A stretch of DNA of 64,000 nt from Candidatus Binataceae bacterium (GTDB lineage: Bacteria > Desulfobacterota > Binatia > Binatales > Binataceae), in NCBI GenBank assembly GCA_963789715.1, contig CAWBLQ010000006.1, positions 431,007 to 495,006 on the forward strand. The letters are read 5' to 3'. The notes under the pieces were generated by a model, which ran no database searches, was not told the origin of the DNA, and saw nothing but the letters and a program-made list of their open reading frames with translations. Made by a program: the position numbers and the translations under genes. Within the stretch, counting starts at the first letter, position 1. Every line of letters starts with the position of its first letter. Shown piece by piece: positions 19,340 to 39,620 of the stretch.

Positions 19340-19640
19340 GAAGGGATTACCAACTCCAATGACAACCGTTGTCATCAGGATCTGCGACGATGTTCGTATG
19401 ATTCTCTCACCGACTCCTGCCGATACACTCACATCGCAACACCCGAACTCCAGCCAATTCGCGGATTTGCTCACCGCCGATTTCACTCGTGCCCGTCCTC
19501 ACAGATTGATCCGCCGGCCCATTCCCGCTCACGCGCCCGCCGCCCACTCGATGGAAGAGATCGAAGAGAAAGTAAAAATGTCAAAAAACCCTCCGATCGC
19601 GGTTTCAGAACAATGTTTGTTTGCTCGTTCGCCGCTTTGG
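19340..19640. repeat. Element A: about 280-bp diverged repeat with perfect 7-1-7 palindrome TGACAAC-C-GTTGTCA at one end and a conserved GAAGARATCGAAGARAAAGTAAA block at the other
   Basis: Homologous to 39310-39620 (element B). The palindrome and the 23-nt distal block are near-identical, while the middle has diverged. Flanked here by inverted R2 copies. Confidence 0.6.
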
Positions 19641-19669
19641 TTCGAATCGTGGGCGTTTGGGAACATGTG

Positions 19670-19735
19670 GCGGAACGAGGAACGCTTACTGGCAGGCTGG
19701 CGCACACCAACCGGAAGATGTGAAGTTTAGACGGT
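19670..19735 (+). repeat. R2 repeat, forward copy abutting the methyltransferase start
   Basis: See the 19235-19305 entry. Forms an inverted pair with that copy around element A, and a direct pair with the 20575-20645 copy around the MTase gene. Confidence 0.65.
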
Positions 19736-20333
19736 GTTGCTTGTGGCGACTAACGGGTGGCGCGAGGTTTGGGATCACTTCAGGGGACGCGGCGCGTATC
19801 CGCATCAGTTCGCCTTCCTGCTGCTCAACCCGCTGCGCAGCCTGATCTTCTCGCCGCGCGAGCTGGTCGCGCGGCTTCATTTGACCGCGAACTCGCGGGT
19901 GCTGGAGCTTGGTCCGGGTCCTGGATTCTTCAGCGTTCAGATTGCACGCCGTATTCCCGGCGGTCATCTGTGCCTGGCGGACCTGCAGCGTGAGATGCTC
20001 GACAAGGCACGCGCGCGAATCAGGCGGGCGGGCGTCTCCAACGTCAGTTTCGCCCAGGCCAGCGCGAGCGCGCTGCCCTTTGCGCGCGAGGTCTTTGACG
20101 CCGCCTTTCTGGTCACGGTGCTGGGCGAGGTTCCCGATGCCGCGGCCTGCGTCGTGCAGTTGCGCGACGTACTCCGCCGCGGCGGTCTGTTGTCGATTAC
20201 CGAGCTCGCGGGCGATCCCGACGCGATGACCGAAGGCGATATCGCGGCGCTAGCCAAAGCCGCGAATCTCGAACACTCAGAGACGTTCACGAAGCGCTTC
20301 GGCTTCACGATCAACTTCAGAAAAGCGGACTGA
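19734..20333 (+). CDS. Class I SAM-dependent methyltransferase (type 11/UbiE-like small-molecule MTase)
   Basis: Motif I VLELGPGPGFFS and post-I acidic residue (LADL). The only in-frame early start is GTG/TTG at about 19734-19743. Confidence 0.65.
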   Translation: MLLVATNGWREVWDHFRGRGAYPHQFAFLLLNPLRSLIFSPRELVARLHLTANSRVLELGPGPGFFSVQIARRIPGGHLCLADLQREMLDKARARIRRAGVSNVSFAQASASALPFAREVFDAAFLVTVLGEVPDAAACVVQLRDVLRRGGLLSITELAGDPDAMTEGDIAALAKAANLEHSETFTKRFGFTINFRKAD

Positions 20334-20574
20334 ATTGAGCGGCGCCCTTTCGTCGCGCGATTGCAGAACCCTCACCTAACCCTTCGGCACTCGGGGCAGG
20401 CTCTCTCCCGTCGTTGCCGTTCCTTCCGATAAGGCAGATCTCATTCGGATGCAGCGAGGCGAAACCGGAACCGGCGGCGTTTGCGCGCCGCTGTCCGAGA
20501 TCCTTCTTTGCGCTCGCGTTGCTCGCTTCGGTCAGGATGACAAGCGTGGGCCCTTCCTTCGTCCGCGGTAAGCT

Positions 20575-20645
20575 ACCCGGCAGAACGAGGAACGCTTACT
20601 GGCAGACTCGCGTAAAGCCCAACCCGAAGATGTGAGGAACCTAAC
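20575..20645 (+). repeat. R2 repeat, forward copy, followed by a CTAACC-rich tail and GC-rich hairpin
   Basis: Matches the other R2 copies. Its tail (GGAACCTAACCTCTAACCCC…) is shared with the partial copy at 21486-21540. Confidence 0.6.
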
Positions 20646-20853
20646 CTCTAACCCCTTTTTTCGGGCCCGCGTGGGAAAGGGGAACCGGAGAGGAGAAAGA
20701 TTCCTGACAAAGGGCGGCAAAACAAGTCAGCATTTTCCTGCTATCAATTCGGCGGTCGAGCGTCTTATCCGACTGGTCTCAAATGGCGAGTTTGTTATTC
20801 TTGTTGAATGACATCCCTATTCGATGTGGGAAAACGGAAACTCCGGAGAATTC

Positions 20854-36785: not shown

Positions 36786-37754
36786 ATGGCCCCGGGTGAG
36801 ATGATGGTGGGAGTGGATGTGTCGATGGCGCGGCTGGATGTGGCGCTGTGGCCTGGTGGCGATAGTTTCAGCCTCAGCAATGACCCGCCGGGAGTGGAAC
36901 AGTTGCTGAAGCGGATGGTTGAGTTGCGGCCGCAGGCGGTGGTGATCGAGGCCAGCGGCGGACCGGAAGACCTGCTGGTGAGTGAGTTGTGTGCGGCCGG
37001 GGTTGCGGTGGCAGTGGTTAATCCGCGTCAGGTGCGCGAATTCGCACGCAGTCTTGGGCAACTGGCCAAGACCGATCGGCTCGATGCGCAGGTACTGGCG
37101 CAGTTCGGACACTCGGCGCAAAGCCATGGGCGGCTTATGCTGACCCAACTGCCGACCGAGGCGGAGGTCGAACTCAAGGCCTTGGTGCGCCGGCGGCGCC
37201 AGCTAATCGGGATGTTGGTAGCGGAGACCAACCGCCGCCAGCGTGCGAGCAAGGTGGTCAAGCGCAGCATCGTGGCCACCATCCGCGCGCTGAAGCGGAG
37301 CCTGGCCGAGCTCGAGCAGCAAGTGCGCGAAACGATCAAGAACTCACCCGCGCATCAGCAAAAGATCGCCATTCTGCAGCAGGTCCCGGGCATTGGCCCG
37401 CACTTGGCGCGTACGTTGATCGCTGAAGTTCCAGAACTGGGACAGGTCGGACGACGCCAGATCGCCGCACTGATCGGGGTCGCCCCGCACGCGCACGACA
37501 GTGGCAAGTTCAAGGGCCGGCGCATGATCTGGGGCGGCCGCGCCGGCGTCCGCAGTACGCTTTACATGGCGATGCTCAGCGCCACCCGCTGCAACCCGTT
37601 GGTGGCTCCCTTTTATCGCCGTCTTTTAGAGCGCGGAAAAAGCAAAAAGCTTGCGTACATCGCCTGCGCCCGCAAACTGCTGGTCATCCTCAACGCGATG
37701 TTTCGTGACGGCACTACCTGGTGCCCCGGCCTTGACTTTCAACACAGTCGCTGA
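36786..37754 (+). CDS. IS110-family transposase/recombinase
   Basis: 322 aa. N-terminal DEDD RuvC-like domain (VGVDVS…, …IEASGG…) and C-terminal (…[20 protein letters not shown]…) are typical of IS110-family transposases. Confidence 0.9.
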
Positions 37755-38084
37755 CCGAAGCGAGCAACGCGAGCGGAGGGAAGGATCTCGGACAGCTTCG
37801 CGCCAGCGAAGCCGGTACCGGTTTTGAAATCGCGCAGCGCTCCTTGCTGAGATAGCCGCGCAAGCCTCCCATTCTCATCGGATGCGGCAACCCAAAACCG
37901 CAACCGGCTTTGCTTACTACCCCGCACGAATTGCCCGTAGCGTAATCAGTAAGATTTCTTGTTGGACTCAGTCCAAACCCTTCAGCACTCCTAGCATGTG
38001 GCTTCTAGACTCTTCTTCTGTTTGGTCAAACGCTCGGCTGATTAAGCGCAAGACTAAAATTCCGGCCGATTTTTCGAGAACTTT

Positions 38085-38405
38085 TCATGACTCGGTGGAG
38101 TTGGCAAACGCGATCAGGCAGTCCACTTCCGATTTCCGGAATCCTAGTTGCTCAAGAGCGCTTGGAGCATGTTGGCGCTTACGGATGAGGTCTTCCAACC
38201 TAAGCCTATTTTGCTCCGTCCGTTCCAGTTCCACCCTTCGAGCTTCCTCCCGCTCGGCCTCTGCTAAAGCGACGGCATCGCGTTTTAGGTCCTGTTCACG
38301 TCTTCGGGCACGCCAATGAGCTAGCGCGAAGTTGACGAGATAGCCCAACAAGAGAAATGGCAGCAAGAGCGCGGCGGCCGCAACGACTAACACAATGTCG
38401 AGCAC
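38085..38405 (-). CDS. Small single-TM coiled-coil protein, hypothetical
   Basis: N-terminal TM helix, then a charged EAEREEARRVELER coiled coil. Low-GC patch between the IS110 and mrr. Confidence 0.4.
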   Translation of the reverse strand: MLDIVLVVAAAALLLPFLLLGYLVNFALAHWRARRREQDLKRDAVALAEAEREEARRVELERTEQNRLRLEDLIRKRQHAPSALEQLGFRKSEVDCLIAFANSTES

Positions 38406-38513
38406 AGTCTGGTTAGCCCTATTGAAGAAACGCTGGTGGTGTGCGCCTAGTGACGCGTGTCACTTTTGGCCGAGGGCGGCGGTGCCGCAGTAGTCCTCGC
38501 CATTCAACTACGG

Positions 38514-39227
38514 CTATATTGCCTTGAACACTTCGGGCTTTATCTCGACCTCTTCGACCGTCTTCGTGAGAACCCCGATCTTCAGTTGCTTAAGCAGATC
38601 GCAGAGCTGTTCTCCATCCAGCAAATCAATTGGATGGGCGCCTTCGCGTGCTGCCTCTCTGCGAGCGTCAGGCGTGAATCGGCCGGTTGTAATGAACAAG
38701 CCCTTGTCTGTGCGGCCAGACATTGCCCCGCGAAAGTCGCGGACATCCTTCGCGGGGACGGTTCCCTTGTAACGCTTGCATTGAAATAAAACCTGAAAAG
38801 ACAAGAGATTTACCCGAAGGACGCCCATTCCGTCGATCCCGCCGTCTCCCGACTTTCCCTTCACGTCTACGTTGATGAATCCGGATTCGCGCAAAAGTCG
38901 CTGCGATAGGCGCTCAAACGCATCGGGCGGCATCGCCTGCAAAACCGCCAAGAGCTCGTCGCGCCAAGTGTCTTCACCAGGTGACTCCTGCTCGCTCAGA
39001 CCTTGGCCTTTTGGTGTGATGCTCCACACGGCGCGGCTGCTATTCTCCACCGCACCAAACAGCCGAAGGTATGTCCGCGCCCACCTTGACCGATATTCAA
39101 TCTCGGTAAGCGGGCCGTTACCATGCGGAACCTTTTGGGCTTCATCCGAGAGTTTGATGATCGCGACGACCTTATCGACATTTCCCCGTGCGATCCCTCC
39201 CCGTTGCCGCGATGTCCAGACATCGTA
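38514..39227 (-). pseudogene. mrr: mrr-like Type IV restriction endonuclease, 5'-truncated (Mrr_N winged helix partly present + complete Mrr_cat domain)
   Basis: The catalytic domain (…DGGIDGMGVL…FQCKRYKG…FITTGRFT) is intact. The in-frame upstream extension encodes Mrr_N-like …EIEYRSWRARTYLRLFG…VWSITPKG, but runs into a stop at 39228-39230. About 20-25 N-terminal residues are missing and no canonical start exists. Element B begins about 80 nt further upstream. Confidence 0.5.
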
Positions 39228-39309
39228 TCACGGAACCGGAACCGGCTTTCGCGTCGCGCGGAGCTGTCCGAGGTCCTTCCTCGACTCGCGATGCTCGCGC
39301 CGTCAGGAT

Positions 39310-39620
39310 GACGCGTGCTGACAACCGTTGTCATCAGAGATCTGGCATAATACTCAGCATGCTTGGTTCACCTGCTTCCGCCAACCCACTTCTCCCCGAT
39401 CAAACGATCCCAACTCTTCATTGGCCCCAACTTCAGTTTCACCCGTCGCCGGATCGCTCGCTCTGCCGATACTTTCCTCCCATCACGCGCACCGACCCGA
39501 CGGAAGAAATCGAAGAAAAAGTAAACTATCGACCAGAACCGTTCCCGTCATTTTAAAACAGTGTTTTTTCATGCCCTCGCAACCGCCGCTGCGCCGTGCC
39601 ACTCTGTGCGCTTGCCCTTT
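39310..39620. repeat. Element B: homolog of element A with the identical TGACAACCGTTGTCA palindrome and a GAAGAAATCGAAGAAAAAGTAAA block
   Basis: See the 19340-19640 entry. Lacks the flanking R2 repeats. Lies between the truncated mrr and dedA. Confidence 0.6.

Follow-up and report, generated by a model that had tools for sequence, protein, structure and literature searches.

A recurrent non-coding module with fixed ends at the edges of small variable islets in uncultured Binatia, a candidate outward-reading promoter

The subject of this analysis is a window of 64,000 nucleotides from Candidatus Binataceae bacterium (contig CAWBLQ010000006.1, positions 431,007 to 495,006), which is part of an 815-kb contig from an ENA metagenome assembly. 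It contains two copies of a module of about 260 bp, here termed E. E is non-coding, seems to be specific to this lineage, and turns up repeatedly in uncultured Binatia beside a wide range of unrelated genes. We tentatively favour the explanation that E is a propagated promoter and leader module, reading outward from the edge of small cargo islets that lack an integrase.

An initial annotation had described the two copies as twin elements with an identical palindrome of two 7-nt arms around one central base. Indeed, the palindrome TGACAACCGTTGTCA was found at 19360–19374 and 39319–39333 and nowhere else in the window. The chance expectation is about 0.01 occurrences, and two occurrences were reached in none of 100 shuffles. 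If three mismatches were tolerated, one additional weak match appeared. The string said to follow the palindrome is likewise present downstream of it in both copies (TCAG(A)GATCTG). A second common block, placed about 200 bp away behind a diverged middle, was recovered as GGAAGA(G/A)ATCGAAGA(G/A)AAAGTAAA at a distance of 193 nt from the palindrome in copy A and 183 nt in copy B. A third motif common to both, TTTYARAACARTGTT, closes the copies. Self-comparison of the window aligned 19360–19576 with 39319–39525 at 62.6% identity over 219 nt, with the divergence in the middle. Overall, the similarity between A and B extends over roughly 220–260 nt at about 62%, and identity above 80% is restricted to blocks of 25–30 nt. 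A search of the window with a profile of the E family yielded two full-length matches and no others:

19360–19621, plus strand: E copy A, 262 bp, full-length profile match with E=5e-73; its ends are set where the similarity across contexts stops.
39319–39568, plus strand: E copy B, 250 bp, full-length profile match with E=1.5e-60; its orthologue in the related contig L064 is 92% identical.

The ends of E are fixed, which makes it a discrete unit. When nine copies from six lineages were aligned, similarity set in within 1–2 nt of the palindrome and stopped at the 3' motif, and the flanks were unrelated. Six invariant clusters follow each other in the order GACAA..G.TGTCAT, CTGnnAnnAT, ATG, TCAnCnnCT, GGAAGAGATCGAAGAG and TT.A.AAC..TGTT. 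The second of them lies 11–12 nt past the palindrome, its C, T, G, A, A and T being invariant in all nine copies, and the ATG follows after a further 6–7 nt. Substitutions in the palindrome are one-sided, none of them being compensatory, and within about 350 kb of related loci the palindrome is confined to E. The stretch from the ATG to block 2 (135–158 nt) is poorly conserved in sequence. Its composition is C-rich and G-poor in all copies (43–47% C, 13–23% G), compared with a genomic G+C content of about 61%. In block 2 the two heptamers vary in parallel, with GAAGAAA twice in copy B and GAGGAGA twice in the copy of contig L070. The 3' terminal consensus is retained in all copies. The parts of the two copies are as follows:

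19360–19374: palindrome TGACAAC-C-GTTGTCA at the 5' edge of copy A; GACAA...TGTC is invariant in the nine copies.
39319–39333: palindrome at the 5' edge of copy B, an exact match.
19382–19391, plus strand: CTGCGACGAT, extended −10-like motif of copy A, with TG at 19383–84 and the hexamer at 19386–91.
39342–39351, plus strand: CTGGCATAAT, extended −10-like motif of copy B, from the nine-copy alignment.
19398–19400, plus strand: ATG of copy A, invariant in nine copies, 6 nt past the −10-like hexamer; candidate transcription start.
39359–39361, plus strand: invariant ATG of copy B, 7 nt past the −10-like hexamer.
19401–19552, plus strand: variable C-rich, G-poor body of copy A (C 43%, G 18%).
19553–19577, plus strand: block 2 of copy A, GGAAGAGATCGAAGAGAAAGTAAAA, containing a pair of GAAGAGA heptamers, 9 nt apart; nearly invariant among copies.
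39502–39525, plus strand: block 2 of copy B, GGAAGAAATCGAAGAAAAAGTAAA, from the alignment.
19603–19621, plus strand: 3' terminal motif of copy A, TTTCAGAACAATGTTTGTT, where the similarity between copies stops.
39551–39569, plus strand: 3' terminal motif of copy B, TTTTAAAACAGTGTTTTTT, from the alignment.

Homologues of E were gathered by a metagenome scan with block 2, by look-ups of window proteins, and through open reading frames (ORFs) that gene callers had laid over E; the contigs originate from peat and forest-soil samples. DedA homologues with 75–91% identity to that of the window carry the names Candidatus Binataceae or Binatus, which places the source of the window among the uncultured Binatota (described in PMC8262859). 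Full-length copies of E were found at seven independent loci with unrelated flanks, five of the locus types lying beyond the window, and the density amounts to roughly three copies per approximately 180 kb sampled. The copies identified in related contigs, all full-length profile matches, are:

L035, L045, L057: orthologues of copy A.
L015, L016: E adjoining the 3' end of tal.
L070: E adjoining the 3' end of tal.
L040, L041: E upstream of an amidase gene.
L058: E upstream of an unannotated ORF.
L067, L068, L069: E upstream of an enoyl-CoA hydratase gene.
L064: orthologue of copy B; here E precedes dedA, and a gene for a 489-residue protein of unknown function stands where the window has mrr.

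Two database proteins add to this list. P0005 is an ORF that runs from E directly into an FGGY sugar kinase, and P0003 begins in a repeat termed R2, crosses E and continues into tal on the antisense strand; look-ups found a contig for neither. Besides the two nuclease genes of the window, the neighbours of E are therefore diverse: tal, a PIN_10/DUF433 pair, a short unannotated ORF, SnoaL-like and unknown genes, an amidase, an enoyl-CoA hydratase, a sugar kinase and dedA. At six of the seven independent loci a co-oriented gene begins about 20–113 nt downstream of E, namely a methyltransferase gene, dedA, the amidase, enoyl-CoA hydratase and FGGY kinase genes and the unannotated ORF. Between the copy A type and the L016 type, which belong to different genomes, identity reaches 84%. 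A search of species-representative genomes with the palindrome extended by 4 nt gave 13 matches in unrelated phyla, about the number expected by chance, and block 2 accompanied none of them. BLASTN of E against plasmid and phage collections gave no match, and look-ups of the PLD and methyltransferase proteins of the window for new contexts returned the same strain only.

The role of a mobile cassette boundary, one of those initially suggested, gained support from the comparison with relatives. At the dedA locus (DedA 86–91% identical), E is absent from contigs L071–L080. In L071–L077 the gap between the citrate synthase gene and dedA measures 141–200 nt without E, and in L078–L080 it holds an insert consisting of R2 repeats only. 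In the window, the insert at this site (about 36491–39575) comprises an IS110 element, an mrr remnant, R2 copies and E. It is bounded by a 14-bp direct repeat, CTCGCAACCGCCGC, which the empty sites of L071 and L077 hold once (with one mismatch in L077). Target-derived direct repeats bound inserts with E at their end at two further loci. At tal they consist of the final ~46 nt of the gene, which recur at 19679–19723 and 20589–20635; the diverged copy at 19669–19723 is 83–86% identical to 17441–17486 and 20579–20635. In L041 the repeat derives from the amidase 5' region: 49 nt at 360–408 are found again at 1209–1257, 47 nt after E. A direct comparison of the window with L035 revealed 30 mismatches in 250 nt of E and 3 in the next 250 nt, which are also non-coding, so that E is about ten times more diverged than the adjacent DNA. 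The left breakpoint of the rearrangement between these two sequences lies 2 nt before the palindrome. Since E is present or absent between relatives, differs so much more than its surroundings and has this breakpoint at its palindrome, it belongs to the exchangeable segment, at whose end it sits, pointing outward. The features that define the two islets of the window are:

16836–17486, plus strand: tal (transaldolase).
17441–17486, plus strand: native tal 3' end (R1), left repeat of the tal islet.
19265–19345, minus strand: inverted R1 copy, 14 nt before copy A.
19669–19723, plus strand: R1 copy (diverged tal 3' end), 47 nt past copy A; it forms the right repeat of the tal islet.
36477–36490, plus strand: left 14-bp direct repeat CTCGCAACCGCCGC of the dedA islet.
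39576–39589, plus strand: right 14-bp direct repeat CTCGCAACCGCCGC of the dedA islet, 7 nt after copy B.
39644–40279, plus strand: dedA (VTT domain), co-oriented, 75 nt after copy B.

Copies of R1, recognisable by ...NEERLLAxW... in translation, punctuate the 3 kb downstream of tal (another is located at 20551–20635, plus strand). Among strains with identical Tal, the content between the R1 copies is variable: a PLD nuclease gene in the window, PIN/DUF433 genes in L015 and L016, and other genes in L035. The tal 3' end thus looks like an integration hot spot.

E is not a gene for a conserved protein. Every copy has an ORF that begins at the invariant ATG. With two frames out of three open, this is what the C-rich composition would lead one to expect. 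The substitutions between copy A and its L035 orthologue are distributed over the codon positions as 12/7/7, and no 3-nt periodicity was detected in the body of E (p=0.3–0.98). The close pair of copy B and L064 is separated by a frameshift, and the frames of L016 and L058 are also out of phase with block 2. Database searches with the in-frame translation retrieved only other ORFs laid over E (P0001–P0007) and no protein family; a search with a concatenated six-frame pseudo-protein gave no match. It is these codon-position counts, the missing periodicity, the loss of frame and the absence of a protein family on which the above conclusion is based, and the first three rule out a long leaderless ORF. 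A small ORF starting from an ATG after block 2 was also rejected, because the L035 and B types lack this start and subgroups vary in its frame relative to the 3' motif, as judged by eye. The 18-nt core of block 2 behaves differently from the body. Read as GAR-GAR-ATS-GAR-GAR-AAN in the alignment, it has all 10 of its 10 inter-lineage substitutions in one phase. Hence the early remark that changes in this block fall at third positions of a plus-strand frame holds and extends to relatives, but the remainder of the element carries no coding signal. The one-phase pattern may mark a short stretch that is translated, or else a binding site in the purine tract.

E is not a structured RNA either and shows no supported RNA structure, contrary to a suggestion made together with that remark. 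At gathering thresholds Rfam 15 gave no match in the window, and at permissive thresholds only noise (E>4) appeared around both copies. Folding of the plus-strand consensus gave a weak structure (−6.7 kcal/mol), made up of a hairpin in the palindrome and a single long-range helix that pairs CTTCACTC with block 2. This helix is compatible with the sequences and includes one compensatory pair, yet it is no better than shuffles: 197 of 500 shuffled alignments reached the same pairing and 150 of 500 the covariation score of 0.159. Compared with the plus strand of copy A, 199 of 200 shuffles fold better (z-score +2.29); copy B and the minus strand are ordinary, with z-scores of +0.32 and −0.91.

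In extended −10 promoters of the sigma-70 type, the key positions are TG at −15/−14, A at −11 and T at −7. The motif CTGnnAnnAT of E matches this sequence pattern, with TG one base upstream of a hexamer whose second base is A and whose sixth is T, and the pattern of conservation leads us to infer a promoter here. We therefore name as the favoured account, with due reserve, the following sequence of events. E would carry a promoter of the extended −10 type (TGn and nAnnAT). The 15-bp palindrome, then located at about −41 to −27, would serve as an operator, that is, as the putative binding site of a dimeric protein, either a repressor or an activator. Transcription would start at or near the invariant ATG and proceed through an unstructured C-rich leader and the purine-rich block with its two GAAGAGA heptamers. 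The transcript would then leave the islet and enter the neighbouring chromosomal gene. E itself would travel with small inserted islets, at their outer edge and facing outward.

Several observations weigh against this account. A simple scan of both copies for the sigma-70 consensus returned no −35/−10 pair, and position −12 in E is C or G, not T. The orientation towards a downstream gene at six of seven loci is suggestive and not significant (binomial p ~0.06). At the tal locus (L016, L070, P0003) E faces the 3' end of a convergent gene and has no obvious client for a promoter. The strict one-phase substitution pattern of block 2 is not accounted for by a promoter. As to the islets, direct repeats were sought at L067 and L058 and none were found, and the lengths of those at the other loci are unequal (14, ~46 and 49 bp). 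No islet contains a recombinase or integrase gene, the only mobility gene nearby being that of the IS110 element, which is a secondary insertion in R2. Finally, all sequences stem from metagenome assemblies of a few related strains, and the number of independent E loci is seven.

Among the other explanations, E could be the cis-acting end or att arm of a non-autonomous mobile or integrative element whose enzyme is encoded elsewhere, any promoter activity being incidental. The palindrome and the repeated motifs TGTCA and ACAATGTT would then be putative binding sites of a recombinase. Such a role agrees with ends that are sharp in every context, with the breakpoint so close to the palindrome, with the presence or absence of E between relatives and the target-derived repeats around the inserts, and with the position of E on the diverged side of the junction. 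Moreover, the end of R2, GGATGACAAnCG, resembles the palindrome half-site GATGACAAC and borders on the neighbours that E has. On the other hand, E lacks terminal inverted repeats; there are neither fixed-length duplications nor a conserved target sequence, and no recombinase is encoded nearby at any locus. The complementarity of E to its own flanks does not exceed the cross-locus background. In addition, copies within one genome are only ~62% identical, so that E has undergone no recent burst. We consider an att arm unlikely, though it is the main rival. A bolder variant, which we regard as decidedly improbable, would make E the conserved end module of an undescribed type of small, integrase-less islet in Binatia with defence and toxin-antitoxin cargo. 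Such islets would be moved in trans and insert at different host-gene ends with a target duplication of 14–50 bp. The palindrome would be the recombination or recognition site, and the outward promoter would either restore transcription of the interrupted host gene or be active across the junction of an excised circle. A local rearrangement is conceivable for copy A alone, where the 351-bp segment between inverted R1 copies could flip as an inverton, towards the methyltransferase or the PLD side. The arms at 19265–19317 and 19669–19722 are 85–91% complementary and flank E at 14 and 47 nt, and in L015 and L016 E is opposite in orientation relative to tal and the methyltransferase gene. However, the arms exist at copy A only, and the left arm is absent in L035, L045 and L057. 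No invertase gene lies nearby, three assemblies of the same strain present a single orientation, and the arrangement in L015 and L016 differs by far more than a flip. Hence, an inverton is very improbable.

Two further proposals concern what E might express or control. It may encode its own product from an internal promoter, either an unstructured small RNA or a short leaderless peptide with a constrained E-E-(I/M)-E-E-(K/N) stretch. The invariant ATG stands at the spacing expected of a leaderless start, and all 10 substitutions in the block 2 core occupy the third position of the EEIEEK frame, which is in phase with the ATG in five of eight lineages; gene callers have placed such ORFs (P0001–P0007). 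Nevertheless, the body is free of codon-position bias and periodicity, the frames shift between B and L064 and are lost in L016 and L058, open frames come with the composition, and the peptide ends vary from copy to copy. A scan of either copy found no intrinsic terminator. The changes in block 2 are purine for purine and would be tolerated equally well in a purine-tract binding site. An own product of E is rather improbable in our judgement. The proposal initially put forward was that the palindrome end of E acts as a shared operator or leader of divergent minus-strand genes for Mrr-type nucleases. It draws on an arrangement seen in the window, where each copy lies 5' of a restriction-like gene on the minus strand and both are oriented alike relative to that gene. 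Yet at five other locus types the neighbour is not a nuclease gene: the suggested check for recurrence beside mrr or PLD genes in relatives gave 0 of 5, and E adjoins unrelated genes there. No conserved promoter-like motif is directed towards the minus strand, the only one present reading away from the nucleases. Furthermore, mrr is truncated at its 5' end and has therefore lost its own start and promoter region, and the start of the PLD gene lies 528 nt away, beyond a dead methylase fragment, with no Mrr_N domain in its product. A nuclease operator is thus hardly credible, and the promoter reading out of the islet is preferred.

The nuclease genes themselves and their surroundings in the window are:

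17954–18832, minus strand: gene of a PLD-family nuclease with a PLDc_2 domain (DrmC-like below cutoff), carried as cargo by the tal islet.
19734–20333, plus strand: gene of a class I SAM methyltransferase, 112 nt past copy A and in the same orientation.
36786–37754, plus strand: IS110-family transposase gene.
38514–39227, minus strand: mrr remnant, Mrr_cat and positions 31–84 only of Mrr_N; cargo of the dedA islet.

Both genes had been described as encoding an Mrr-type winged helix and as lying directly downstream of the palindrome end of a copy of E. For the PLD protein this domain assignment was not borne out. No Mrr_N match was found in Pfam at E<=1, BLASTP revealed no similarity to the N-terminus of the mrr product, and NCBIfam gave only a sub-threshold match to a DrmC-like PLD protein. 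The description of a truncated mrr was correct in that this is a 5'-truncated Mrr gene, although a decayed fragment with a partial Mrr_N. The gene for the Mrr catalytic domain was called at 38514–39050, and its frame can be traced to about 39227, with a stop upstream. Of the 87 positions of the Mrr_N model, 31–84 are covered, and the first ~30 residues are absent. As to the immediate neighbourhood, both copies do lie 5' of the respective gene in the same orientation, but the N-terminus of the dead methylase and the inverted R1 copy, which derives from the tal 3' end, intervene between the start of the PLD gene and palindrome A, and the 82-nt R2 repeat separates mrr from palindrome B. The methylase fragment (approximately 19060–19183, minus strand) is a remnant of a DNA methyltransferase N-terminus (MSSFHKTKRGQIILGDSLEYMAAL...) with its start at 19183 and in-frame stops, upstream of the PLD gene. 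Possibly, the PLD gene, whose best NCBIfam match is DrmC of the DISARM system below cutoff, and this remnant represent a decayed defence operon. The PLD nuclease gene and the mrr remnant are best read as decaying cargo of two islets and not as genes served by E. The same relative arrangement of nuclease and E at both copies results from the shared layout of the islets. Hence, the twin arrangement mirrors a common islet architecture and not a dedicated regulator of restriction genes.

E is assignable to none of the described families with which it was compared. Putative mobile promoters, defined by 50–100 nt at >=80% identity (Matus-Garcia, Nijveen and van Passel 2012, PMC3488235), are the closest described concept. 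E resembles them as a homologous non-coding sequence that is located upstream of, and co-oriented with, six non-homologous genes and has apparently spread within and between related genomes. In contrast to that definition, copies A and B are ~62% identical over ~250 nt and reach the identity threshold in short blocks only. The fixed ends, the terminal palindrome and the place at the edge of an islet also fall outside it.

Other comparisons concern elements with a similar effect or layout. The Correia elements of Neisseria and Pout promoters of the ISAba1 type are short repeats or insertion sequence (IS) ends that give a promoter to an adjacent gene and vary between strains. E is likewise short, repeated, intergenic and strain-variable and could supply a promoter, a likeness in effect. 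It differs from them by the lack of terminal inverted repeats, of a fixed target duplication and of a related transposase, and its promoter-like motif is ~230 nt away from the outward end. Miniature inverted-repeat transposable elements are not matched, because the left end of E is a palindrome in itself, the right end shares only AAC..TTGT with it at another spacing (compared by eye), and no pair of arms lies inside E. Nor does the target duplication fit this class, as the repeats of 14, ~46 and 49 bp bound whole islets and not E, with none at L067 and L058. Degraded integrative elements at gene ends leave repeated partial att copies, as in tRNA and tmRNA hot spots. Correspondingly, short segments of strain-variable cargo, for instance nuclease and toxin-antitoxin genes, lie here between diverged copies of the tal 3' end (R1), of the dedA 5' region or of that of the amidase gene. 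The R1 array at tal resembles what repeated integration at a gene end would leave behind. Unlike such arrays, the islets have no integrase, and the same E occurs with three different target repeats; therefore, a single site-specific integrase is no explanation. Rho-utilisation (rut) leaders, e.g. those of tna and mgtA, are comparable with respect to the C-rich, G-poor and poorly structured ~150 nt past the putative start. This likeness is one of composition only, and copy B is not unusually unstructured.

Four candidate relationships were rejected. An integron attC site is defined by an imperfect palindrome of R''(RYYYAAC)...R'(GTTRRRY) with 57–141 bp in one orientation. As judged by eye, TGACAAC and GTTGTCA do not fit RYYYAAC and GTTRRRY; they are 1 nt apart, and the body of E is not self-complementary. 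An element guided by a bridge or guide RNA is not indicated, as the longest matches of E to its own flanks (6–10 nt) are the same as those to the flanks of other loci. For a nick site of the MOBP type at the palindrome, ATCCTG is on the wrong side and not conserved (by eye). Kinship to the neighbouring IS110 element was discarded, since E has no similarity to its non-coding left end and the IS is a secondary insertion.

The R2 repeat and several other repeats of the window were recorded in addition. The R2 copy that abuts palindrome B is the following:

39231–39312, plus strand: R2 repeat, 82 nt.

Further copies are located at 20460–20541 (plus strand) and 37753–37831 (minus strand), with a fragment at 36540–36566, and at 9411–9496 and 9732–9814 of L078. 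Members of this family (~82–118 nt) have an internal hairpin whose stem varies by compensatory changes (GCGGCG/CGCCGC versus GCTTCGC/GCGAAGC). In L078 about 2.5 tandem units of 48 nt, derived from the 3' part of R2, follow at 9815–9930. The IS110-family element at 36585–37752 lies inside an R2 copy with CT at both flanks, TGTCATC-CT before TGTATGTGG and CAGTCG-CT before GACCGAAG, and is a later insertion into this copy at the CT dinucleotide. The stop codon of its transposase gene straddles the right junction, and its non-coding left end of ~200 nt is a place to seek a bridge RNA. A related IS110 element is inserted in R2 at a different CT and in opposite orientation in L064 (approximately 2225–3472). 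R2 seems to be a preferred target of IS110.

A palindromic repeat resembling repetitive extragenic palindromes (REPs), GGCAGGGGTGACCCCTGCACCC, occurs in intergenic DNA of the window at 17854–17885, 23940–23964 and 43464–43495 (reverse complement) as well as in related contigs, at 2709–2746 and 3321–3357 of L058. The region 48052–48771 consists of dense repeats with spacings in multiples of 6 nt (12/18/24/30) and CGGCGACGGCGACC...-like units. It probably encodes a repetitive protein; similar dense repeats are found in L067 at 7003–7436, inside a gene of 534 residues. ARAGORN called a tRNA-Glu(ctc) at 29829–29915 on the minus strand in GC-rich, coding-like surroundings, which is probably a false call.

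To our knowledge, the Binatota are a phylum without a cultured member and without any promoter biology. If the promoter reading is true, horizontally acquired islets would bring E along as an expression module ready for use, and E would rewire the core gene next to it in these bacteria. If E is instead an end module of the islets, it would provide a handle for finding small cargo islets together with the machinery that moves them.

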